Assembly: GCA_964490005.1 (NCBI GenBank)
Contig: CAZBBB010000007.1
Location: 842-64,841, forward strand
Direction of reading: 5' to 3'
DNA length: 64,000 nucleotides
From: an uncultured Phycisphaerales bacterium
GTDB taxonomy: Bacteria > Planctomycetota > B15-G4
How positions within the stretch are numbered: the first letter of the stretch is position 1; each line of letters opens with the position of its first letter. The notes under the pieces were generated by a model, which made no database searches, had not been told where the DNA came from, and worked only from the letters and a program-made list of their open reading frames with translations. Below are positions 454-61,290 of this stretch, piece after piece. A program made the position numbers and the translations under genes.

Positions 454-529
454 GGGCGGATAGCTCAGTTGGTAGAGCACTGCACTGAAAATGCAGGTGT
501 CCCCGGTTCGAATCCGGGTCTGCCCACCA
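454..529 (+). tRNA. tRNA-Phe (anticodon GAA), CCA encoded
   Basis: Hand-folded cloverleaf: acceptor GGGCGGA/TCTGCCC, D arm GCTC-AGTTGGTA-GAGC, anticodon arm CTGCA-CTGAAAA-TGCAG, T arm CCCGG-TTCGAAT-CCGGG, discriminator A plus CCA. Length 76 nt. Confidence 0.95.
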
Positions 530-3493: not shown

Positions 3494-3772
3494 ATGACGA
3501 GCAGCCTCCAAGCCGCCAAGCGCGTTCGCCAGAACGAGAAGCGTCGCCTGCGCAACCGCGCCAAGTCCTCCGCGATGAAGAGCTCGATGAAGCGCGTCGA
3601 GGGCGCCATCGCGGCCGGCGATGCGGCGGCCGTCAAGCTGGCCCTCGACGAGGCCTACAGCCGCATCGACAAGGCCGCGCGCAACAAGGTCATCCACCCG
3701 AACACGGCCGCCCGGCGCAAGGCGCTCATCGCGCGGCACGCCGCCGCCGCGGGCAGGACCGCCAAGGCCTGA
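3494..3772 (+). CDS. rpsT: 30S ribosomal protein S20
   Basis: 92 aa, basic, with a typical S20 N-terminus (SLQAAKRVRQNEKRRLRNRAKSSAMKS...IHPNTAARRKA). Confidence 0.95.
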   Translation: MTSSLQAAKRVRQNEKRRLRNRAKSSAMKSSMKRVEGAIAAGDAAAVKLALDEAYSRIDKAARNKVIHPNTAARRKALIARHAAAAGRTAKA

Positions 3773-3791: not shown

Positions 3792-5312
3792 TCAGCGCGC
3801 GTAGCGCAGCGGCAACTCCATCGTGAGCGCGAGCAGCGCCGTGGCGTAGACGCGCCCGCCCTGCGAGCCCCAGGGGTCGAGTTGCGGGTCCCAGCTCCCG
3901 CGCAGCTCGCCCTGCGCGTGCTGTCCGGTCGTGACCGCGGCGATCAGCGACTTCTCCCAGGCGGGCCAGGCGCGGCCGCCCCGCTCGTGCAGCGCGTAGG
4001 CGCCGTAGTACCAGTAGTAGTAGTCGCGCCGGCCGGGCAGGGCCTCGTCCCAGGCGGGGGGCAGCGCCGCGAGGCGCGCCGCGCCGCGCTCGAGGCGTTC
4101 GGCCGCGGCCGGCTCGGTGACGCGCGCGCCGCCGAACAGCCGGCTCAGGACCGCGACGGCGGTCATCGACTCCGAGTCATCCGCGGGCCAGTGCCCGGCC
4201 GTCCCCGGCAGGCGCGCGGGACCCGCGCCGCGCTCGACGTAGCCGGCGCGGCCGGTGTCCGGGTCGGTGAGTTCCTCCACGAGGAGCAGGCCGTCGGCCC
4301 AGGCCCGCTCGTCGACCGGCAGGCCCGCCGTCTCGGCGGCCGCGAGCGCGAGCAGCGCCCACCCGGTCACGGAGAGGTCCTGCGCGTGCGCGGCCTGCTC
4401 GGGGTGCCCGGCGCGATAGCGCCAGCCGCCGCCCGGGGCGCGCAGCGCCGAGAGCCGGGCCAGCGCGCGCGTGGCCGGCTCGCGCAGCAGGCTGTCGCGC
4501 GACATCGCGTAGGCCTCGACGATCGCCAGCGTGGCGATGGCGTGATCGTAGGTCGACTGCAGCAGGCGCTCGTCGCCGAAGTCGCCGTCGGGCGCCTGCT
4601 GGTCGACCAGCCAGCGCAGCGCCTGGCGCACCTGCCCGGCCCAGGCGCCCGGCTGGCGATGATGGTGGCCGGCGCCGAGGAAGGCCAGCACCGCCAGCGA
4701 CGTGACGCCGACGTCGTGCTGCGGGTTGCCCAGGCCGTCGCAGACCGCGTCGTCGCCGAGCTTGCCGCACTCGACGTCGAAGGCCGCCGCCGACCAGTGG
4801 CCCGCCTCGCTCTGGTGCGCCGAGAGCCAGGTGAGCGCGGCCGTGACGACGGCCGAGTAGGCCGGGGGCAGCTCGCCGCCGCGACCGGGGTAGCCGCCGG
4901 GAGGGCCGCCCGCGCCCTCGGTTCCGCCGCCGAGGCCCAGCGGCGAGAACACGCTCGACGCGGCATCGGACGGTGTCGGACTCGCATCGACCAAGCTCGG
5001 CACGTCGGCGGGCGTCGGATCGGGCACGTCGACCAGGCTCGGCTCGAGTCGCGTCTCGGTCGGCGGAGGCTCGAGGGCCGTCTCGGGCGGCGGCACGATC
5101 GGCGGCGGCGGCTCGAGCAGCGCCTCGGGGCGCGCGGTCAGCACGCGCGCGGGGTCGGCGGGCGGCGGCGGGGCGGCCGTCGCGAGCAGCACGATCAGCA
5201 CCGCGTGCAGCGCGACCGAGATCGCGAGGTAGGGCGATTCGCGCAGCGCGTCGCGCAGCTGCTCGGCGAAGCCCGGTGCGTGGGCCAGAGTCGGGGATCC
5301 GGTGCTCGACAT
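3792..5312 (-). CDS. membrane-anchored prenyltransferase / terpene-cyclase-like (alpha/alpha toroid repeat) protein, copy 1
   Basis: ATG start. TM helix (SPYLAISVALHAVLIVLLA), a Pro-rich spacer, then repeated QxxxGxW/F-type motifs (HQSEAGHWS, DQQAPDGDFG, APGGGWRY). Paralogous to 5400-7010. Confidence 0.85.
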   Translation of the reverse strand: MSSTGSPTLAHAPGFAEQLRDALRESPYLAISVALHAVLIVLLATAAPPPPADPARVLTARPEALLEPPPPIVPPPETALEPPPTETRLEPSLVDVPDPTPADVPSLVDASPTPSDAASSVFSPLGLGGGTEGAGGPPGGYPGRGGELPPAYSAVVTAALTWLSAHQSEAGHWSAAAFDVECGKLGDDAVCDGLGNPQHDVGVTSLAVLAFLGAGHHHRQPGAWAGQVRQALRWLVDQQAPDGDFGDERLLQSTYDHAIATLAIVEAYAMSRDSLLREPATRALARLSALRAPGGGWRYRAGHPEQAAHAQDLSVTGWALLALAAAETAGLPVDERAWADGLLLVEELTDPDTGRAGYVERGAGPARLPGTAGHWPADDSESMTAVAVLSRLFGGARVTEPAAAERLERGAARLAALPPAWDEALPGRRDYYYWYYGAYALHERGGRAWPAWEKSLIAAVTTGQHAQGELRGSWDPQLDPWGSQGGRVYATALLALTMELPLRYAR

Positions 5313-5399
5313 GCTTCGGGCCTCCGTCGGGGGAACGACGGGGCCCGCTAGGCGGGGCCGCTCAGGCGGGCAACGGAACGCCGGGCCGCCGAGCGCGGC

Positions 5400-7010
5400 T
5401 CAGTGCGCGCCCATGACGGTGTCGTAGCGGTAGAAGACCTCGAGCGTCAGCGCCAGGATCGACGTGCTGTACACGCGGCCGCCGATGCTGCCCCACGGGT
5501 CTTCCTGCGGGTCCCAACTGCCCTTGCGCTCGCCCTCGCGGAACTGATGGTCGGCGATCGCGGGCACGATGGTCTTCTCCCACTCCTTCCACTCCTTGCC
5601 GCCCCACTGGTAGAGCGCGTAGCTGCCGTAATACCAGTAGTAGAAGTCGCGGCGCCCGGGCTTGGCGTCGTCCCAGACGGGGGGCAGCGCGCTGATGATC
5701 TTGACGCCCTTCTCGACCATCTCCTTGTTGTTGGGGCGCTCGAGCTTGGAGTCGGCGAAGATGCGGCACAGCACGCCGACCGCCGTCATCGACTCGGTCT
5801 GGTCCTCGGGCCAGTTGGTGCGCATCACGCCCTCTTCGCGCGCCGGCGAGCCGCCGCGGTCGTAGTAGCCCGTGACCCCGTCGAGCGGATTGGTCATCTC
5901 CTCCAGGAACAGCATGCTGTCCTCGAGCGCCGTCTCGTCGAAGGGCATGCCGTACTCGCGCGCGAGCGTCATCGCCATGATCGCCCAGCCCGTGACCGAC
6001 ATGTCGTTCATCTTGCCGGGGACCATCTCGGGGCTCGACGCGGCGTAGCGCCAGGCCGCCCCGGGATTGCGGATCGAGTACATGTACTTGAGCGCCTTCT
6101 CGGCCGGCGCCTTGAACATGTACTGCTTGGTGAGCGCGTAGGCCTCGACCACCGCCAGCGTGGCGATGAAGTGGTCGTAGGTGTAGTTCGCGACGAGCTC
6201 GTTGCCGAAGTTGCCGTCGCGCTGCTGGTTCTCGATCAGGTAGCGCAGGCCCGACTTGACCGTCTTGGCGTACTTGCCCTCCGTGTGGGTGTTGCCCGCA
6301 CCCAGGAAGGCGAGCAGCGCGAGGCCCGAGACGCCCACGTCGTACTGCGGCCGGCCCAGGCCGTCGCAGATGACGTCGTCGCCCTGCTTGCCGCACTCGG
6401 TGTCGAAGGCCGAGCAGCTCCAGTGGCCGCTCTCGATGCTCTGGTGGTTCATCAGCCACTTGAGCGCGTCGTCGACCGAGCGCTGGATGGCGTCGCCGGC
6501 GCGCCCGCCGCCCTTGCCGCGACCGCCGAGCTTGCCGAAGCCCGAGCCGCCGCCGCCGCCCACGCCGATGACGTCGTTGAGGCCCGTGCTGTCGAACTCG
6601 CCGCGGCTGTCGGAGATCGTCTCGACCTGGTCGACGACCTCCTCGGTGGTCTCGACCTCGGAGATCGTGGGGTCTTCGACGACCTCGACGACCTCTTCGA
6701 TCTTGGGTTCGGGCGGGGGAGGCGGCGGAGGAATGGGCTCCTCGAGCTCCTGGTTGCTGGCCTTGATCGTCTGCTCCTTGGGGGCGAGCGTCGGCGGCGA
6801 GGCCGTGGCGAAGATCAGCAGCAGGACGAAGTGCAGCGCGGCCGACGCGACGAGGTACGGAGAGCTGCGCAACAGCTCACGCAGCGTGTCCTCGAAGGTC
6901 TGCGCCTCCGAGCCATGGCCGGGTCGGTGATCGGCCTGCGTCACCAGCTCGGGAATGCCCTTGTCGGCCACGATGTCAGCTCCGGGGGACGATCGATTGC
7001 GCGCGCGCAC
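5400..7010 (-). CDS. membrane-anchored prenyltransferase / terpene-cyclase-like protein, copy 2
   Basis: Same architecture as copy 1 (SPYLVASAALHFVLLLIFA; NHQSIESGHWS, ENQQRDGNFG, NPGAAWRY; GRRDFYYWYYGSYAL). The longest ORF starts at GTG 7010. An in-frame GTG at 6971 has GGAG 8 nt upstream and may be the true start. Confidence 0.85.
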   Translation of the reverse strand: MRARNRSSPGADIVADKGIPELVTQADHRPGHGSEAQTFEDTLRELLRSSPYLVASAALHFVLLLIFATASPPTLAPKEQTIKASNQELEEPIPPPPPPPEPKIEEVVEVVEDPTISEVETTEEVVDQVETISDSRGEFDSTGLNDVIGVGGGGGSGFGKLGGRGKGGGRAGDAIQRSVDDALKWLMNHQSIESGHWSCSAFDTECGKQGDDVICDGLGRPQYDVGVSGLALLAFLGAGNTHTEGKYAKTVKSGLRYLIENQQRDGNFGNELVANYTYDHFIATLAVVEAYALTKQYMFKAPAEKALKYMYSIRNPGAAWRYAASSPEMVPGKMNDMSVTGWAIMAMTLAREYGMPFDETALEDSMLFLEEMTNPLDGVTGYYDRGGSPAREEGVMRTNWPEDQTESMTAVGVLCRIFADSKLERPNNKEMVEKGVKIISALPPVWDDAKPGRRDFYYWYYGSYALYQWGGKEWKEWEKTIVPAIADHQFREGERKGSWDPQEDPWGSIGGRVYSTSILALTLEVFYRYDTVMGAH

Positions 7011-7046: not shown

Positions 7047-8078
7047 CTAGGGGCGCGACGGAGGGTTGGCAACCGCGGCCGGCGCGTCGTGAAACAGCTC
7101 GCGCGGCCACACGAGGGCCTTCTGCGAGAGGGTCACGACGAGGTGCCGGCGGGCCTCGGCCAGCAGATCGTCGAGCAGCAGCGTGCGCAGTCGCTGCTGC
7201 GAGGACGCGTAGTCGGCCTCCCGGGCCGGGAGGCGCTCGGCCACGACGAGCACGAAGGGGCCCTCGCCGGTGCTGAAGGCCTGCCCCGCGCCGGGCGCGG
7301 CCTCGCGCGCGAACTCGGCCAGCGCGGCCGGGAAGACGCGCGGCAAATCGACGAGCGCCAGCGTGCGCCTTGCGGGCGGCGGGCCGGGCGGCCGCTCGCC
7401 GCGCGCCAGCGCCTGCTCGTGGCCGAGCGCCGCGGCCGGGTCGTCGAAGCGCAGCAGGTCGCAGACGACGCGCTCGGGCGTGCCCAAAGAGTCGCGGTTG
7501 GCCTCGAAGGCCGCGCGCAGCTGGCTCGGCGTCACGCTCACGAGCCGCACCAGCAGCGGATCGGGCGTGAGCAGGTTGCCGTGCTCGTTGCGCAGTCCCA
7601 CGCGGTGCAACAGGTACAGCTCGGCGAGCGCCGCGCGGTGGGCCAGGTCCTTCTGGCGCGCGACGCTCGTGCCCGTCAGCGCGGCGATCGCCTGGTAGTC
7701 GGGCGCCGAGCCGCGGCGGCGCTCCCAGTACTCGCTCACGTCGCGCTCGGTGAGGTGCACGCCGAGCCGGCTGGCCTCGCCGGCGAGCAGGATCTCCTCG
7801 CCGATCGAGCGGCGCGCCGCGTGGTTCAGGCTGGCGAGCGGCACGTCGGGGTAGTCCTCGGCCAGCAGGCGCACGTGGACGGCGATGTCCTCGGGCGTGA
7901 TGGCCTCGCCGTTGACGGTCGCGGGGCGCTCCCAGCGGGCGCTCGGCGGGGCGGACGCGGGTGTCGACGCGCTGCCGGGCGCCGCGCCCTGCGCCGCGAG
8001 GCTGCCGGCGCAGACCAGCGACGCGCCGAGCGCGGCGAGCAGGCGGCAGGCGGGCGCGGGCGGCATGCGCGCCATCAT
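7047..8078 (-). CDS. SurA/PpiD-like periplasmic chaperone (signal peptide)
   Basis: Signal peptide MMARMPPAPACRLLAALGASLVCAGSLAAQG followed by a SurA-N-like segment (TVNGEAITPEDI...). The ATG at 8078 overlaps the mfd stop (ATGA). The rest of the 1102-aa track ORF is out of frame over mfd. Confidence 0.75.
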   Translation of the reverse strand: MMARMPPAPACRLLAALGASLVCAGSLAAQGAAPGSASTPASAPPSARWERPATVNGEAITPEDIAVHVRLLAEDYPDVPLASLNHAARRSIGEEILLAGEASRLGVHLTERDVSEYWERRRGSAPDYQAIAALTGTSVARQKDLAHRAALAELYLLHRVGLRNEHGNLLTPDPLLVRLVSVTPSQLRAAFEANRDSLGTPERVVCDLLRFDDPAAALGHEQALARGERPPGPPPARRTLALVDLPRVFPAALAEFAREAAPGAGQAFSTGEGPFVLVVAERLPAREADYASSQQRLRTLLLDDLLAEARRHLVVTLSQKALVWPRELFHDAPAAVANPPSRP

Positions 8079-11000
8079 AGGGAACGCGCGCGGCGGGCGG
8101 GCGCCGGGTCGGCCGCGCCCGCGGAGAAGCGCCGCAGCAGCCACTCCAGGCGTTCGTGTCCGGCGCGCGCCTCGCGCGGCCACTCGATGCGCCAGCGGCC
8201 GGGCGCCAGCGGGGTCAGTTCGTCGCGCGTGAAGGGGCTGCGCTGCGCCCAGCGCGGCGGATCGGACACCACGAGCACCGCGCCGCCGTGGCCGTCGGTG
8301 AGCAGCGAGGCGAGCCCGGCGAGCTTGACCGCGCGGCGCAACCGGAACAGGTCGAGCAGTTGCGCGGCCGGGCGCGGCAGCTTGCCGAAGCGGTCGACGA
8401 GTTCGCGCTGCAGCAGGTCGAGCCGGCGCCGGCCGCCCTCGGCCATGCGGCGCAGCAGGCTCATGCGCAGCCCCTCGTCGGGCACGTAGTCGACGGGCAG
8501 ATACGCCGTCAGGCCGAGTTCGACCTCGGTTTCGCCGGCCTCGTCCTCGACCGCCTCGCCGCGCGCGCTCCCGACCGCGCGCCGCAGCAGGCGGCAGTAC
8601 ATGTCGTAGCCGACCGTGAAGATGTGGCCCGACTGCTCGCCGCCGAGCAGGTTGCCCGCGCCGCGCAGCTCGAGGTCGCGCAGCGCGATGGGCAGCCCCG
8701 AGCCGAGGCGGCTGTACTCCTCGATGGCCTTGAGGCGGCGCTCGGCGTCGCCGGCCAGCGGCGCGTCGCGGGGCACGAGGAAGTGCGCCCAGGCCTGCGT
8801 GTGCTCGCGGCCGACGCGCCCGCGCAACTGGTGCAGGTCGGCCAGCCCGTAGCGGTCGCTGTCGGTGACGATGATCGTGTTGGCGCGCGGGATGTCGATG
8901 CCCGACTCGACGATCGAGGTGCAGACCATCACGTCGATCTCGCCGTCGGCGAAGGCGGCGACGGCGGCGCGCAGCTCGGCGGCCGAGAGCTGCCCGTGCG
9001 CCTCGCGCACGCGCGCGGTCGGCACGAGACGGCGCACGCGCTCGGCGACCGTCCCCAGCGTCTGCACGCGGTTGTGCAGCACGAAGACCTGCCCACCGCG
9101 GCCGACCTCGTGCAGGATCGCGGCGCGCAGCGCGCCGTCCTCGTCGTAGCCGACCTTGGTGATCACGGCGCGCCGGCCGGGCGGCGGCGTGCGGATGGTG
9201 GAGATGTCGCGCAGGCCCGACATCGCCATGTGCAGCGTGCGCGGGATGGGCGTGGCCGAGAGGGTCAGGACGTCGACGGTGGCGCGCAGCCGCTTGAGGC
9301 GCTCCTTGTGCGCGACGCCGAAGCGCTGCTCCTCGTCGACGATTAGGAGCCCCCGCTCGGTGAAGCGCACGTCGGCGCCGAGCAGCCGGTGCGTCCCGAT
9401 GACGATGTCGACCTTGCCGGCGGCCAGGTCGGCCAGCACCGCCTTGATCTCGCCCTCGCTGCGGAAGCGCGAGAGCACTTCGAGGCGCACGGGCTCCTCC
9501 GCCATGCGGCTCGAGAAGGTCTCGTGATGCTGCTCGGCGAGGATCGTCGTCGGCACGAGCACGGCGCACTGCCTGCCGGCCAGCACGCACTTGTAGGCCG
9601 CGCGCACGGCGATCTCGGTCTTGCCGAAACCCACGTCGCCGACGAGCAGGCGGTCCATCGGCCGGGGCCGCTCCATGTCGAGCCGGATCTCGCGCCAGAC
9701 GGTCTCCTGGTCGGGCGTGTCGGCGTGCGGAAAGGCGGCCTCGAAGCGCGCCTGGCTGCCGTCGTCGGGGGGGAAGGCGAAGCCCGCGCCGTCGGCGCGC
9801 CGGCTCTGCACCTCGAGCAGTTCGCTGGCCAGGTCGGCCACGGCGCGCGCGACCTTGTCCTTGCGGCGCTTCCAGGTGCGCCCGCCGATGCGGTCGAGCT
9901 TCGGCGGGCGCGCGTCGGCGCCGATGAAGCGCTCCACCAGGTCGATGCGGCTGGCCGGCACGTAGAGCCGCGTCTCCTCGGCGAACTCGAGCACGAGGAA
10001 GTCCTCCTCGCCCTGCTCGCGCGCGCGGCGCTCCATGCCCAGGTAGCGGCCCACGCCGTGCGTGAGGTGCACGACGTGGTCGCCGGCGTGCAGCTCGGCG
10101 AGATCGGCCAGAGCGCGCGTGGCGAGCACGCGGCGCACGGGGCTGCGGCGCACCGGCCGCCGGCCGATGAGTTCGTGGTGGTGCACGAGCACCGGCCCCT
10201 CGTCCGGCAGCGCGAAGCCCGTCGCGAGGCGGCCGACGGCCAGGTGCAGGCCCTCCCAGGGCGGCGTGCCGCGCTCGGCGAGCGCCTCCGCGAGCCGCTC
10301 GCACTCGGCCTGCGTGTCGGAGAGCAGCCAGACGCCGCGCCCGGCCCGTCGCCACGCGTCGAGCACGACGTGCTCGGGACGCCCGTCGCCGGCGACCGAT
10401 CGCAGCGAGAGGTCGCGCGCCGGATCGCCGAGGTCCAGCGGCCAGCAGTCGGCGCCCGGGCTCTGCGCGAGACGCGCGCGCAGCGCTTCGATCTCGGCCG
10501 GGTGGCGGCCGTGCTCGAAGGCGACCTCCGCGAGGCGGTCCTTCAGGCGCGCGGGGTCGAGCACGACGATCGGCAGCTCGGGCGGCACGCGCTCGAGCAG
10601 GCGGCTCGTGCGGCCGCCGGCGCGCGGCGCGCCGCCAAGCGGCAGGACGACCTCGTCGAGCACCGCCACCGAACGCTGAGTCTCGATGTCGAAGCGGCGC
10701 AGCTCCTCGATCTCGTCGTCGAGCAGCTCGACGCGCAGCGGGGCCGACGCCGCCCAGGCGTAGACGTCGAGGATGTCGCCGCGCACCGAGAACTCGCCCG
10801 GCGCGGCGACGAGGTGCGCGCGCACCAGGCCCGCGTCGAGCAGGCGGGCGACGAGCGCCTCGCGGTCGAGGCGTGCGCCGCGGCGCAGCGCGAGGCGCTC
10901 GCCTTCGTCGGCCGGCAGCTCCTCGAGCAGCACGGGCCCCGGCACGATCAGCCAGCCGTCGCCGGAGCCCTGCAGCTCGGCCAGCGCGACGAGGCGCTCG

Positions 11001-11314
11001 GAGCGGTTGGCCGCCAGCTCGGGGCCCTCGCTCAGACCCTCCTCCTCGACCGGCAGGAGCGTGACGGGGACGTGGGGAAACAGCAGCGCGAGGTCGAGCG
11101 TCAGCGCGTCGGCCGCCTCGGCGGCGGGCGCGACGATCAGCGCGCGGCCGCGGCCCGCCAGCAGCAGGCCCGCGACGAGCGCGCCGCCACTGCCCCAGGC
11201 GCCGCCGATCTCGTGGCGCGCGTCGGGCCGCGCGCGCGCCGCCCGCAGCACCGGGTGCGCGCAGAGCGCCTCGTGCAGCGCCCGCAGGGCGCCGGCGTCC
11301 TCAGTCCTCGTCAT
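8075..11314 (-). CDS. mfd: transcription-repair coupling factor
   Basis: 1079 aa. Contains an UvrB-homology N-terminal region, helicase motifs GDVGFGKTE and VDEEQRFG, a TRG-like region and a C-terminal domain typical of Mfd. Confidence 0.97.
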   Translation of the reverse strand: MTRTEDAGALRALHEALCAHPVLRAARARPDARHEIGGAWGSGGALVAGLLLAGRGRALIVAPAAEAADALTLDLALLFPHVPVTLLPVEEEGLSEGPELAANRSERLVALAELQGSGDGWLIVPGPVLLEELPADEGERLALRRGARLDREALVARLLDAGLVRAHLVAAPGEFSVRGDILDVYAWAASAPLRVELLDDEIEELRRFDIETQRSVAVLDEVVLPLGGAPRAGGRTSRLLERVPPELPIVVLDPARLKDRLAEVAFEHGRHPAEIEALRARLAQSPGADCWPLDLGDPARDLSLRSVAGDGRPEHVVLDAWRRAGRGVWLLSDTQAECERLAEALAERGTPPWEGLHLAVGRLATGFALPDEGPVLVHHHELIGRRPVRRSPVRRVLATRALADLAELHAGDHVVHLTHGVGRYLGMERRAREQGEEDFLVLEFAEETRLYVPASRIDLVERFIGADARPPKLDRIGGRTWKRRKDKVARAVADLASELLEVQSRRADGAGFAFPPDDGSQARFEAAFPHADTPDQETVWREIRLDMERPRPMDRLLVGDVGFGKTEIAVRAAYKCVLAGRQCAVLVPTTILAEQHHETFSSRMAEEPVRLEVLSRFRSEGEIKAVLADLAAGKVDIVIGTHRLLGADVRFTERGLLIVDEEQRFGVAHKERLKRLRATVDVLTLSATPIPRTLHMAMSGLRDISTIRTPPPGRRAVITKVGYDEDGALRAAILHEVGRGGQVFVLHNRVQTLGTVAERVRRLVPTARVREAHGQLSAAELRAAVAAFADGEIDVMVCTSIVESGIDIPRANTIIVTDSDRYGLADLHQLRGRVGREHTQAWAHFLVPRDAPLAGDAERRLKAIEEYSRLGSGLPIALRDLELRGAGNLLGGEQSGHIFTVGYDMYCRLLRRAVGSARGEAVEDEAGETEVELGLTAYLPVDYVPDEGLRMSLLRRMAEGGRRRLDLLQRELVDRFGKLPRPAAQLLDLFRLRRAVKLAGLASLLTDGHGGAVLVVSDPPRWAQRSPFTRDELTPLAPGRWRIEWPREARAGHERLEWLLRRFSAGAADPAPARRARSL

Positions 11315-13181
11315 CGTCGCCCGTCGCGGACTGCAGGCCGGCGCGCGCCCGCAGCGCCCGCAGCGCGGCGCGCGCGGCGCGCTGCTCGGCCTGCCGCTTG
11401 TTGCGCCCGGTGGCGACGGCCAGCTCCTCGCCGTCGACGACGGCCGCGACGGTGAAGGTCTTGGCGTGGTCGGGGCCGCTGGCCTGCAGCACGCGGTACT
11501 CGGGCGTGCTGCCGTCCTTGCCCTGCGTGAGCGTCTGCAGGTCCGACTTGGCGTTGGCGCTGCGATGGCGGTCGGACGAGGCCTCGATGAGCGGGCCGAA
11601 GTCGGTCTCGACGATGCGCCGCACGGCCGCGAGCCCGCCGTCGAGATAGACCGCGCCGAGCACGGCCTCGACCGCGTCGGCCACGACCGAGGGCGGGATC
11701 GATCCGATCGAGCGGATGCCGCCGCCCAGATCGAGCAGCGGCGCCAGGCCCCAGGCGCCGGCGATGCGGCGCAGCGCGTGGCGGCTCACGACCGCGCTCT
11801 TGATGCGCGAGAGCTCGCCCTCGTCGCGCTCGGGGTAGCGCCGATACAGATCGGCCGCGACGCACAGCCCGAGGATCGCGTCGCCCAAAAACTCGAGGCG
11901 CTCGTTGGGCGCCTGCTCGGCCGAGCGCGCCGACGCGTGGGTCAGCGCCGTCGCCGCCAGCGCACGGTCGTGGAAGGCGTGGCCGATGGCGTGCTCGAGC
12001 GCGGCGACGCGCGCGTCGAGCTGCGGGCTGCGCGCCGGCGCCGCGATCGTCACGCGCGCCTCGGCCAGCCGCCGGCTCTCGTCCATCGCGAAACGGTCGG
12101 TCATGCCGGCGACGTAGTCGCAGACGCTGCGCGGCAGGCCCTCGGCCTCGGCGCGCGCGCGGTAGTCGTCGGGCAGTTCGTCGGCGTGGCTCGCGTAGTG
12201 GCGCACGATCACGGCGATGGCCTGCCGCGCCGTGGCCGCCGAGCGCAGCACGCGCGGGTGCCGGTAGAAGCGCTCGAGCAGGAAGCCGCCGAGCGCCGCG
12301 TGCAGCCTGGCCCGCTCGGGCGAGAAGCGCACCAGCCTGCCTTCGCGCGCCGCGACCTGCTCGGCGCTCGTGCAGCCGGAGGCCGCGATCGCCGCCGACG
12401 CGCTCGCCACGATGTCGTGCAGGCTGGCCTTGACCATCACGTTCAGGATCGCCTTGCGCGCGTGGCGATCGCCGCCGCGCCCCGCCGCGCCGGCCTCGTC
12501 GCGCGCGCGGCGCCAGATCTCGAGTTCGTCGAGTTCCTCGGCGCGCAGGATGCCGGCGCGCAGTCCGTCCTCGAGATCGTGGTGCTGGTAGGCGGTGCTG
12601 TCGGCCAGGTCGACCACCTGCGCCTCGAGCAGCAGCCCCGGCGCGATCGGCGCGCCCCGTCCCGCATCGCCTCCGTGCTTGAGGATCGAGCGGCGCAGCA
12701 CCTGCGTGAGGTTGAGCCCCGGGCGATCGGCATACGGGCTCTCGAGCACATCGACGATGCGCAGCGCCTGCGCATTGTGATCGAAGGGCACGCCTGCCTC
12801 CTCCTCGAGGATGCGCTCGCCCTCGTGTCCGAAGGGCGGGTGCCCGCTGTCGTGCACCAGCGCGAGCGATTCGCCCACCGTCTCGTTGAGCCGCAGCGCC
12901 CGGCACAGAAAGCGCGCCATCTGCGCGACCTCGAGCGTGTGCGTCAGCCGCGTGCGGTAGAAGTCGCCCTCGTCGATCACGAAGACCTGCGTCTTGTCCT
13001 TCAGCCGCCGGAACGCTCCGCAATGCACGATGCGGTCGCGGTCGCGCACGAAGGCCGTGCGGAACGGATCGGGGGGCTCGGGAACCGGGCGCGCATCATG
13101 CGCGTCGGAGAAGCACGCCGGTGCGATGAGCGTCGCGCGCTCGGCTCGCTCGGCGTCCTCGCGCGTGGCGATGGACGACAT
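11301..13181 (-). CDS. single ORF fusing a dGTPase-like HD phosphohydrolase (N-terminal, about 376 aa) to ribonuclease III (C-terminal, about 250 aa)
   Basis: N-terminal part has RLTHTLEVAQ, HDSGHPPFGH and DYVAGMTDRFA (Dgt family). C-terminal part has the RNase III signature ERLEFLGDA, ADAVEAVLGAVYLD and a dsRBD (PEYRV...GPDHAKTFTV...NKRQAEQRAARAAL). There is no stop between the two parts. An internal in-frame GTG lies at 12053. Confidence 0.85.
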   Translation of the reverse strand: MSSIATREDAERAERATLIAPACFSDAHDARPVPEPPDPFRTAFVRDRDRIVHCGAFRRLKDKTQVFVIDEGDFYRTRLTHTLEVAQMARFLCRALRLNETVGESLALVHDSGHPPFGHEGERILEEEAGVPFDHNAQALRIVDVLESPYADRPGLNLTQVLRRSILKHGGDAGRGAPIAPGLLLEAQVVDLADSTAYQHHDLEDGLRAGILRAEELDELEIWRRARDEAGAAGRGGDRHARKAILNVMVKASLHDIVASASAAIAASGCTSAEQVAAREGRLVRFSPERARLHAALGGFLLERFYRHPRVLRSAATARQAIAVIVRHYASHADELPDDYRARAEAEGLPRSVCDYVAGMTDRFAMDESRRLAEARVTIAAPARSPQLDARVAALEHAIGHAFHDRALAATALTHASARSAEQAPNERLEFLGDAILGLCVAADLYRRYPERDEGELSRIKSAVVSRHALRRIAGAWGLAPLLDLGGGIRSIGSIPPSVVADAVEAVLGAVYLDGGLAAVRRIVETDFGPLIEASSDRHRSANAKSDLQTLTQGKDGSTPEYRVLQASGPDHAKTFTVAAVVDGEELAVATGRNKRQAEQRAARAALRALRARAGLQSATGDDDED

Positions 13182-13374
13182 GGGGGCAGCCTCTGGAAGT
13201 GTCTCAGGGCCGCCCGTGGCGAAAAGTCACCGGGCGCTGACTCGCGGAGCCCGGTGGCCTGCCGTCACGGACGATGGGACGCGGCATCGTAGCACCGGGG
13301 CGGGAACGGCGTCGGGCGGCCGTGCGCGACGGCACATCACGGCACGGCGCCGGGCGGCACCCGCTCAGGGCGCT

Positions 13375-13491
13375 CGCGCGAGGGAGTGCCCCGAGGCTCG
13401 GACAGACTCCCTCGCCTTCGCGAGCGGTGACGGTGAAGCTGTCACCGCTCTCGAAGGCTACGAAGCTCGCCTCGGAGCACTCCCTCGCGCG
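13375..13491. repeat. two-tier imperfect inverted repeat (long hairpin) in the divergent intergenic region
   Basis: Outer arms 13375-13397 and 13469-13491 pair at 22 of 23 positions. Inner arms 13415-13431 and 13441-13457 pair at 16 of 17 positions, with a 9-nt apical loop. All pairs checked by hand. Confidence 0.9.
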
Positions 13492-13600
13492 CCGCCCGCC
13501 GATGCACGGGGGGTGGCGGGGGGCGCGAACTGCGGGACGGGGCGTGTCGAGCGGCGGATCGGGCGTGAGTAGCATCTCGTTGAGACGAGAGGAGGTCATC

Positions 13601-14974
13601 GTGAAGGCTTCGTCGGTACCTTTGCAGAGTGTGGTGGCGCTTGCGTTCATCACTTGCATCGGATGCATGGCTCCTGCCGTGATCGAGACGGCATGGGGGC
13701 CGGCCCACTGGGAGCACGCACTCGCTCCGGGGGTCGTGGTCGGCTCGCTGACATGCATCGACGATGTCGACGGCGACGGTTGCGCCGAGATCGTGGCGAG
13801 ACTCTCGACCGACCGCGCGATGAATGGCGAGCAAGTGCATGACGAGAGCGGTGCCGAACTCGTCGCGATGGATGCCGAGCGCGTGCTCCTGCTGAGCGGC
13901 CGAACGGGAATCGTATTGCGTACGATCGCCTCCGAGCACGGTTCGTGGTCTTTGGGGCAGTCGACTGCCGTGCTCGGGTCGGGTGACGGCGGGCCGCACC
14001 TCGCGATCGGGGATCCGGATGCCGAGGGCCTCGCGGGCCGGGTCGTGCTGTGCGCCGCGACGGCGTCGGACGGGGTGAGGTTCATGGCGGCGCCCGAGGG
14101 TGCACGAGGATTTGGAAGGGGTCTGCTTGCGACGCGCGATCTGGACGGAGACGGCGAACGCGACCTGCTTGTCGTCGCGCCCGGCTCATCGGGCCGTCAT
14201 GGACTCGTTGGAGCGAGCGCGATCTACGCCATGTCCTCGCGTCGGGACGAGATGCTCTGGGCTCTTCACGACGATCGCCGATACGGGTCGGCGCTCTGGC
14301 CCATGAGCGCGGCCGGCGAGTCGGCCTCTGACGCGCTGCACGTTGCGGCATGGGGCGGCGGACAGGCCAACTGCCCTCTTCGGGTGTTCTGCTTCGACGT
14401 GCGCAGCGGTGCCATCGTGTGGGAGTCGGAGCTGCGAATCGAGCCCTACGAAATCGGCAGCATCCTGCGCGGAGTGTGCGTCGGCGATGTCGATGGCGAC
14501 GGCGAGGTCGATGTCGTCGTGCTGGTGAGGACTGGGCCTCGGGGCGGAGGCAAGCAGAACAACACACTAGTGGTGCTGTCCGGCGCGAGCGGCGACGTGC
14601 TTGCGAGTTGCGCCACACGCGAAGGCTGGCGCTGGATGGCCTTCGACCTGGTGCCGTTCCGATGGCATTCAGGTGCGGACTCCGCGGCCGGCCTGTTGAT
14701 GCTGACCTGCGTCGATGAGGCGTACGGACCGCGTTGGTCGAAGGGGCTCGACCTCACGCGCTTCGCACTCGGCCACGTCGATGATCGCGTCTCGTTCGCG
14801 GTGTCCGCGCACCGCTTCGTGGCTGCTGAGGGCGACGTGATGGCATGCCTGCTTGCGGACGATGCCGACCCGTTCGCCGCATGGCCAAGGCCGGTCGTCG
14901 CCATCGCGCGGAGATCGCCCGGCGAACTCGTGCGCACGTCCATCATCGTGCTTCCGTCACCAGGCGGAGACTGA
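13601..14974 (+). CDS. FG-GAP/VCBS-repeat lipoprotein
   Basis: GGAGG lies 5 nt upstream of GTG 13601. Signal peptide with a lipobox-like ALAFITCIGC. Repeated Ca-binding-type DxDGDG motifs (DDVDGDGCAE, RDLDGDGERD, GDVDGDGEVD). The track ORF start (13274) adds Arg-rich junk. Confidence 0.8.
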   Translation: MKASSVPLQSVVALAFITCIGCMAPAVIETAWGPAHWEHALAPGVVVGSLTCIDDVDGDGCAEIVARLSTDRAMNGEQVHDESGAELVAMDAERVLLLSGRTGIVLRTIASEHGSWSLGQSTAVLGSGDGGPHLAIGDPDAEGLAGRVVLCAATASDGVRFMAAPEGARGFGRGLLATRDLDGDGERDLLVVAPGSSGRHGLVGASAIYAMSSRRDEMLWALHDDRRYGSALWPMSAAGESASDALHVAAWGGGQANCPLRVFCFDVRSGAIVWESELRIEPYEIGSILRGVCVGDVDGDGEVDVVVLVRTGPRGGGKQNNTLVVLSGASGDVLASCATREGWRWMAFDLVPFRWHSGADSAAGLLMLTCVDEAYGPRWSKGLDLTRFALGHVDDRVSFAVSAHRFVAAEGDVMACLLADDADPFAAWPRPVVAIARRSPGELVRTSIIVLPSPGGD

Positions 14975-34049: not shown

Positions 34050-34125
34050 TGGAGCGGGTGACCGGGTTCGAACCGGCGACATTCAGCTTGGGAAGCTGAC
34101 ACTCTGCCAACTGAGTTACACCCGC
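34050..34125 (-). tRNA. tRNA-Gly (anticodon CCC), CCA encoded
   Basis: Hand-folded: acceptor GCGGGTG/CACCCGC, D arm ACTC-AGTTGGCA-GAGT, anticodon arm TCAGC-TTCCCAA-GCTGA, T arm GCCGG-TTCGAAC-CCGGT, discriminator U plus CCA. Length 76 nt. Confidence 0.95.
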
Positions 34126-61213: not shown

Positions 61214-61290
61214 GGCGGAGTAGCTCAGATGGTTAGAGCAGCGGATCCATAATCCGCGTGTCGGGGGTTCGATTCCCTCCTCCGCTACCA
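61214..61290 (+). tRNA. tRNA with CAU anticodon (Met-like; Ile2/lysidine identity not excluded), CCA encoded, atypical C33 and G1-U72
   Basis: Hand-folded: acceptor GGCGGAG/CTCCGCT, D arm GCTC-AGATGGTTA-GAGC, anticodon arm GCGGA-TCCATAA-TCCGC, T arm GGGGG-TTCGATT-CCCTC, discriminator A plus CCA. Length 77 nt. Confidence 0.75.

Follow-up and report, generated by a model that had tools for sequence, protein, structure and literature searches.

A single open reading frame joining a Dgt-type dNTP triphosphohydrolase to RNase III in Planctomycetota

TT1383 of Thermus thermophilus HB8 (PDB entry 2DQB) is a deoxynucleoside triphosphate (dNTP) triphosphohydrolase of the Dgt/SAMHD1 HD superfamily (TIGR01353), and the class-1 RNases III of Escherichia coli (7R97), Mycobacterium tuberculosis (2A11), Campylobacter jejuni (3N3W), and Aquifex aeolicus (2EZ6) have one catalytic domain and one double-stranded RNA (dsRNA)-binding domain (dsRBD). 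Here, we analyzed a 64,000-nucleotide stretch of DNA from an uncultured Phycisphaerales bacterium (contig CAZBBB010000007.1, positions 842–64,841; hereafter, the window), in which one open reading frame (ORF) of 626 amino acids, located at 11301–13181 on the minus strand, encodes both kinds of enzyme in succession. Taken separately, the two halves are ordinary representatives of well-known families; the unusual part is the combination. The fusion is almost certainly real and ancient, and its product, which has been fixed in evolution, is probably a housekeeping enzyme with two functions, whose modules are tethered to each other and act independently.

Domain architecture of the fused ORF

The ORF starts with ATG (13181–13179), ends with TGA (11303–11301), has no internal stop codon, and corresponds to a product of approximately 68 kDa; its N-terminus lined up with the N-termini of 27 orthologues in the alignment. 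A first-pass annotation of the window had described an uninterrupted ORF of this length that combines a dGTPase-like protein with RNase III, and the Pfam and NCBIfam domain searches bore this out. The motifs it had quoted (GHPPFGH, DYVAGMTDRFA, and NERLEFLGDA) were all present in the translation.

The Dgt half comprises residues 1–376 (12054–13181, minus strand). It contains an HD domain at residues 78–197 (12591–12950), which matched PF01966 with 46.3 bits against a Pfam cut-off of 22, and an HD_assoc domain at residues 284–371 (12069–12332), which matched PF13286 with 75.9 bits against a cut-off of 22.2. The NCBIfam cut-off of the dGTP_triPase subfamily TIGR01353 was also passed (251 bits against 152.35), and the earlier assignment of the N-terminal half as a Dgt/HD protein therefore held. 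The five metal ligands of the HD domain (H...HD...D), H81, H110, D111, D191, and D194, were invariant in 28 fused proteins. Residues 18–373 aligned with residues 15–375 of the 376-residue chain of 2DQB (E = 4.5e-78). When an AlphaFold2 model of the fusion protein was superposed on this structure using Foldseek, the template modeling (TM) score normalized to the target was 0.90, with a root-mean-square deviation of 2.7 Å and an identity of 42%. TT1383 thus shares with the Dgt half a full-length match, the HD and HD_assoc domains, and the H..HD..D ligands. From this conservation, the Dgt half is predicted to hydrolyze dNTPs to deoxynucleoside and triphosphate.

The RNase III half begins with the catalytic (endonuclease) domain at residues 393–526 (11604–12005, minus strand), which bears the NERLEFLGD signature and was recognized by two Pfam models, Ribonucleas_3_3 (PF14622, residues 405–526) and Ribonuclease_3 (PF00636, residues 427–516). 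A single C-terminal dsRBD follows at residues 544–610 (11352–11552, minus strand; PF00035 dsrm, 61.8 bits, E = 9.6e-17), and it adopted an α-β-β-β-α fold in the AlphaFold2 model. The half passed the equivalog cut-off of TIGR02191 RNaseIII (203.9 bits against 166.25) over positions 2–218 of the 219 model positions. Sequence comparison with the solved bacterial enzymes 3N3W, 2A11, and 7R97 gave E values of 1e-38 to 3e-33, and the target-normalized TM score of the A. aeolicus enzyme 2EZ6 to the model was 0.84 (Foldseek). The NERLEFLGD signature and the conserved acidic residues of the class-1 enzymes were also found in the C-terminal half of the fusion. Among these residues, E430, D434, and E505 were invariant in the 28 fused proteins. 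We take E41, D45, D114, and E117 to be the four acidic metal ligands of E. coli RNase III and, by our own count of the E. coli sequence, D502 presumably corresponds to the ligand D114. The RNase III half would cut dsRNA in a staggered, Mg-dependent manner, with rRNA precursors as one conceivable substrate; as a class-1 enzyme, it would do so as a homodimer and leave 2-nt 3' overhangs. The fusion protein would be the housekeeping RNase III of the cell.

Two other proteins with RNase III sequences were observed in the representative library. In P0160 (480 amino acids), a complete RNase III unit consisting of catalytic domain and dsRBD occurs twice in tandem; judging from this arrangement, it would be an intramolecular "dimer" reminiscent of Drosha/Dicer in a short prokaryote-like protein. 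P0244 (2391 amino acids) contains an RNase III-like segment at residues 1424–1645 that was 38% identical to the RNase III half in the window.

Distribution of the fusion and its junction

A homologue search covering 5.8 billion protein clusters yielded approximately 47 clusters (P0002–P0047) that were 56–74% identical to the fusion protein over 94–100% of the query. All of them carried the same five Pfam domains, i.e., HD, HD_assoc, both RNase III models, and dsrm, and they were derived from assemblies of JGI, NCBI, ENA, and Logan. Some lay on long contigs, of 1.16 Mb, 1.88 Mb (Ga0315336_1000007), and 5.29 Mb (CBDFJQ010000002.1). Among the species-representative genomes, five further complete fused loci (L001–L004 and L041) and one truncated locus (L005) were identified, all of them from genomes named Planctomycetota bacterium. 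When 80 genome loci, each with up to 10 kb of flanking sequence per side, were searched by tblastn with the Dgt and RNase III halves, the two halves lay in one frame in all five complete loci and were not found together in any other of the 80 loci. No stop codon interrupted the junction in these five loci or in a further fused locus, L082.

The linker between the two halves comprises the 16 residues 377–392 (12006–12053, minus strand). It begins with an in-frame GTG (codon 377, 12053–12051), which together with the A at 12050 forms GTGA, so that a TGA lies in the +1 frame; this is as the first-pass annotation had quoted it. The start/stop overlap habit that it had pointed out elsewhere in the window was confirmed in one nearby instance, as the PPIase-like (peptidyl-prolyl cis-trans isomerase) gene start and the mfd stop overlap by 4 nt as ATGA at 8078–8075. 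The GTGA at the junction may be a relic of an ancestral start/stop overlap or a coincidence.

With such a junction, two overlapping genes could have been joined in this contig only, by a 1-nt indel that arose close to the 3' end of dgt during sequencing or assembly. The first-pass annotation had considered this, and the TGA in the +1 frame, as well as the overlap of dgt and rnc as ATGA in the unfused relative L090, would fit it. However, the same uninterrupted architecture recurred in the approximately 47 clusters, which show 56–74% identity and come from independent projects and assemblers, among them contigs of 1.9 Mb and 5.3 Mb, and the five other complete loci had both halves in one frame. 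Homology to Dgt also continued in frame 0 until at least residue 373. Furthermore, the G+C content at third codon positions (GC3) was 0.95–1.00 in all 20-codon windows across codons 301–472, and this constancy argues that the frame does not change at the junction. On the strength of the conservation in orthologues, the same-frame tblastn matches, and the GC3 profile, we rejected the artefact, to which we give next to no chance. The orthologues showed neither a stop codon nor a frame change, and the other possibility named at first, a genuine fusion, was supported by them.

The linker differed from the domains on either side in conservation and predicted structure. The mean identity of the orthologues to the window sequence was 68% in the Dgt half and 65% in the RNase III half, as opposed to 19% in residues 377–392, and linker length among the orthologues spread up to 40 residues. 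As the halves are conserved and the linker is variable, both enzymes appear to be under purifying selection, with the connector acting as a mere tether. The AlphaFold2 model, which was built on the 28 fused sequences, had a mean predicted local distance difference test (pLDDT) score of 83 and a predicted TM (pTM) score of 0.58; pLDDT was below 50 for residues 377–383. In this model, the protein consists of two confident folds with a flexible hinge between them. Neither the sequence search nor Foldseek found a PDB entry covering both halves. The linker was probably derived from an old N-terminal extension of rnc or from a spacer.

To define how widely the fusion occurs, an exhaustive HMMER search covered 1.84 billion representatives at 50% identity. 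It yielded one full-length fused representative, P0046, with 709 bits, and the next match was a stand-alone Dgt of 397 amino acids with 319 bits. A second, distant fusion of Dgt and RNase III would be expected to score far higher than 209 bits, the floor of the list, and no such protein was found among these representatives; a wider occurrence in another lineage was rejected accordingly. In neighbor-joining (NJ) trees of each half, which were rough and carried no support values, the fused proteins were monophyletic and their sub-groups were broadly congruent. Because the fusion fell into one 50% cluster and the two half-trees were congruent and monophyletic, a single fusion event is the simplest reading, and it likely took place in one clade of Planctomycetota.

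A word-index search with the RNase III half listed fragments and stand-alone enzymes and no full-length fusions, which is probably a property of its candidate step. The matches with at least 57% identity that had no full Dgt half were all on contigs of 2.2 kb or shorter; most of them resembled truncated fusion genes, several with HD_assoc, and the locus L084 described below was the exception. On long contigs, the nearest stand-alone RNase III relatives were at most 50% identical to the RNase III half of the fusion. No second copy of rnc or dgt was found within the 64-kb window, where only chance matches of 24 bits appeared.

Unfused relatives and gene neighborhood

Related Planctomycetota without the fusion keep the gene order dgt, rnc, mfd, and PPIase. 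In their operons (L085/L086, L090, and L092), Dgt was 48–52% and Rnc 47% identical to the corresponding halves in the window, and the flanks were shared as well: on the upstream side lie FG-GAP or Kdo-kinase-like genes, and on the downstream side mfd, a gene for a SurA-like PPIase, and a squalene-hopene-cyclase-like gene. Unlike the fusion, these operons have two ORFs, and the boundary between them is a spacer of 374 nt, an ATGA overlap of 4 nt, or a TGA in frame followed by 6 nt. The spacer was found in L085 and L086, two independent assemblies in which dgt is followed by rnc (47% identity), mfd, and the SurA-like gene; the closest stand-alone Dgt, P0050 (52% identity), is encoded there. The dgt stop and the rnc start overlap as ATGA in L090 (GCA_046349655.1; Dgt P0064). 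In L092 (GCA_040758315.1; P0111), the dgt TGA, six bases, and the rnc ATG follow each other in the same frame at 3747–3758. As only this TGA and two codons stand before the rnc ATG, L092 is one substitution away from a fusion, and read-through of the stop codon could already yield a fused product there.

The ATGA state of L090 needs some caution, because its mfd was split into pieces of 862 and 88 amino acids and its FG-GAP gene into four (4021–5655 and 7861–10896), so that this assembly probably carries indel errors or pseudogenes; L085, L086, and L092 did not have this problem. In three other loci (L089, L091, and L093), dgt was not next to rnc, and the adjacency is therefore specific to the branch. 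A widespread adjacency of the two genes was rejected, as it was seen only in specific relatives within Planctomycetota (among the 80 loci and L085, L086, and L089–L093).

We propose the following origin of the fusion. In the ancestor of one Planctomycetota clade, a dgt-rnc-mfd-PPIase string would have begun with dgt, encoding a TT1383-type dNTP triphosphohydrolase, and the adjacent rnc, the two being coupled in translation. A small frameshift, or a mutation that removed the stop codon of dgt, would then have merged the two into one frame, and the merger would have become fixed. The product would consist of an N-terminal HD-domain dNTPase, a short, disordered, and fast-evolving linker, and a C-terminal RNase III with its catalytic domain and dsRBD. 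The merger of two coupled genes, which had been suggested at first as an error in this window, thus does not apply to the window sequence and stands as ancestral history, as illustrated by the ATGA of L090 and by the TGA and 6 nt of L092. The fusion is a lineage-specific domain architecture that arose by a textbook mechanism whose intermediates are visible in relatives. It offers a clean natural example of the origin of a multidomain enzyme, and the intermediates survive in relatives, where dgt and rnc lie 374 nt apart, overlap by 4 nt, or are divided by one in-frame stop codon.

Downstream of the fusion in the window, mfd (8075–11314, minus strand) encodes a transcription-repair coupling factor of 1079 amino acids with the Pfam domains UvrB_inter, CarD_TRCF_RID, DEAD, Helicase_C, and TRCF, and its ATG (11314–11312) falls within the last codons of the fusion ORF, so that the two genes overlap by 14 nt. 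It is followed by the PPIase (SurA/PpiD-like) gene with a Rotamase_2 domain (7047–8078, minus strand), the last member of the conserved gene string. On the other side, a divergent gene for an FG-GAP repeat protein (13274–14974, plus strand; Pfam FG-GAP) lies upstream of the fusion and marks the 5' boundary of the operon. FG-GAP genes were also divergent upstream of dgt in the unfused L090, a SurA-like gene followed mfd in L085, L086, and L092, and squalene-hopene-cyclase-like and ribosomal protein S20 genes were located farther along the conserved string. The rnc-mfd overlap was 17 nt in the fused loci L081, L082, and L083 and in the unfused L084, L090, and L092, against 14 nt in the window; in L085 and L086, the two genes abut with a 1-nt gap. 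The recurrence of this overlap suggests that the translation of RNase III is coupled to that of Mfd as a conserved feature of the branch.

One short contig differed from the other fusion-related matches. At positions 1–930 of L084 (ENA ERZ23498364 scaffold_392137, a 1.95-kb contig), a stand-alone RNase III of 272 amino acids (P0153) was observed, which was 67% identical to the RNase III halves of the fused proteins P0039 and P0041. Upstream of its gene lay the 3'-terminal part of a gene for a FabF-like ketoacyl synthase (ATGCCTGA overlap), and mfd lay downstream.

These arrangements also bear on the idea, raised in the first-pass annotation, that RNase III is additionally initiated on its own. 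Re-initiation in the linker, at the GTG at 12053 or nearby, would give a free RNase III besides the fusion protein and would preserve the expression of the ancestral coupled genes; it does not exclude the bifunctional enzyme that we propose. Each of the seven DNA sequences analyzed had an in-frame GTG, ATG, or TTG codon within the linker or shortly ahead of it, the ancestral rnc start falls at the position of the linker in L090 and L092, and the stand-alone rnc of L084, nested in the fused clade, indicates that the RNase III half can be a separate gene. Against this, GTG is very common in DNA with an overall G+C content of 74%, and the codons in the linker were indistinguishable from ordinary Val or Met codons. 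Val occupied the column of codon 377 in only 3 of 28 orthologues. Among the seven DNA sequences, the ATG, GTG, and TTG codons showed no conserved position and no Shine-Dalgarno-like motif upstream. A conserved internal start was thus unsupported, initiation at GTG 12053 found no comparative backing, and we regard a second product as rather unlikely.

Several further features were noted in the window. An ORF of 839 amino acids runs antisense to the fusion gene (10773–13292, plus strand), and one of 1102 amino acids overlaps mfd (7047–10355, minus strand), of which only the last 343 codons are the real PPIase gene; both translations were rich in Arg, Ala, and Pro. Given the G+C content, such long antisense or alternative-frame ORFs are an expected non-coding by-product. 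At the gathering threshold, the Rfam scan of the window matched only three tRNA genes, at 454–526 (plus strand), 34053–34125 (minus strand), and 61214–61287 (plus strand), and it revealed no riboswitch or leader RNA near the fusion gene.

Functional reading and comparison with known systems

In the bifunctional enzyme that we propose, each module would keep its own chemistry, the HD module hydrolyzing dNTPs and the RNase III module dimerizing and cleaving dsRNA, and the fusion would mainly enforce 1:1 co-expression and co-localization. That the modules act independently of each other is likely. Dgt-like dNTPases are homo-oligomers, either hexamers or tetramers. RNase III acts as a dimer, and TT1383 was crystallized with six chains in the 2DQB entry; hence, a hexamer carrying three RNase III dimers is conceivable.

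Several observations weigh against this explanation. The Dgt half belongs to its family at the subfamily level only, below the equivalog level, as it missed the equivalog cut-offs of the PRK01286 series (best match NF002326, 333.7 bits against 390). The window protein and at least 90% of the sequences have D502; two of 28, P0030 and P0037, have Asn in its place. The dNTPase and dsRNase activities are predicted from conservation, and the term housekeeping is based on the TIGR02191 equivalog score and on synteny. In addition, P0153 nested inside the fused clade in the NJ tree, so that the history may include a fission or rearrangement, or the tree may be imprecise; the basis of this is one short contig. 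Finally, the clade-wide persistence of the fusion is equally compatible with neutral fixation and with a selected functional coupling that lies outside the explanation.

The first two of these observations would also fit a decayed half, i.e., one of the two enzymes being a non-catalytic pseudo-enzyme that serves only as a scaffold or RNA-binding tail. We judge this highly improbable. In P0030 and P0037, all catalytic residues other than that at the D502 position were intact, and H81, H110, D111, D191, D194, E430, D434, and E505 did not vary in the 28 sequences. Moreover, the two halves are conserved almost equally (68% and 65%), and both gave full-length structural matches (TM scores of 0.90 and 0.84).

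Another explanation is that the tether was selected and that the two activities, perhaps together with the co-translated Mfd, act as a coupled machine. In one version, RNase III might be gated by the Dgt module, which would serve as a sensor of dNTPs or single-stranded nucleic acid; in the other, the protein might work at R-loops or transcription-replication conflicts, or might combine antiviral dNTP depletion with dsRNA cutting. Some of the data point this way. The order dgt-rnc-mfd is older than the fusion and was kept in at least three unfused lineages as well as in the fused clade, the rnc/mfd overlap of 14–17 nt recurs in the window, in other fused loci, and in L084, L090, and L092, and the fusion has been retained even among proteins that have diverged to 56% identity. 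According to PMC7854603, the binding of oligonucleotides regulates some homologues of Dgt/SAMHD1, and PMC9257424 makes a prediction to this effect. The broad PADLOC dGTPase model also matched the Dgt half, with 270 bits. On the other hand, the linker is disordered and conserved in neither sequence nor length, and at a pTM of 0.58 the model does not place the halves confidently relative to each other. Most dgt genes outside the branch do not adjoin rnc, and neighboring operon genes commonly fuse neutrally. We therefore consider such a machine unlikely.

The antiviral version can be compared with the anti-phage dGTPases of the Sp-dGTPase type, which have the HD dNTPase superfamily in common with the Dgt half. 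The curated NCBIfam model antiphage_dGTPase (NF041026) missed its cut-off by a wide margin (186 bits against 400), and the target-normalized TM score of the Shewanella enzyme 9p8w to the model was only 0.58 (Foldseek). In contrast to anti-phage systems, the fusion lies in a housekeeping context of mfd, PPIase, and FG-GAP genes, with the S20 gene nearby in relatives; no defense or mobile genes were found among these neighbors, and there was no defense island. Hence, a role as a defense system was rejected, although the PADLOC model matches.

A more elaborate form of coupling would be an adaptive tether, in which a Dgt hexamer scaffolds up to three RNase III dimers per particle, and the binding of dNTPs or single-stranded nucleic acid allosterically controls the cleavage of dsRNA or R-loops, in concert with Mfd, to which it is coupled in translation, where transcription complexes have stalled. 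Such a particle is improbable; if true, it would reveal a previously unrecognized link of dNTP-pool sensing, RNA processing, and transcription-coupled repair. If the modules are independent, which is the likeliest outcome, the fusion matters for annotation and evolution only. Viewed as a "Rosetta-stone" fusion, it gives a hint of a functional link among Dgt-type dNTPases, RNase III, and Mfd in Planctomycetota, whose nucleic-acid metabolism is poorly studied.

The fused proteins are already present in databases under the automatic names "ribonuclease III" or "dGTPase". As these names cover one half only, pathway reconstructions can miss one of the two activities. The first-pass annotation had not been aware of any description of the domain pair. 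This was right with respect to publications, as no paper on a Dgt-RNase III pair was found in the searchable full-text literature, and it needs amending with respect to databases, in which the proteins are auto-named.

Compared with the known enzymes, the fusion protein combines features that are otherwise found apart. TT1383 and all other Dgt homologues in the PDB search stop where the fusion chain runs on into RNase III; the fusion protein may share the activity, the dNTP-dependent activation, and the hexamer formation of the TT1383 type. Conversely, the canonical bacterial Rnc is a free protein of approximately 220–270 amino acids, whereas that of the fusion carries a 376-residue dNTPase at its N-terminus. 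This architecture poses a structural question, namely how the obligate dimer of RNase III can form when the N-terminal half of the same chain resembles a dNTPase that assembles into hexamers.

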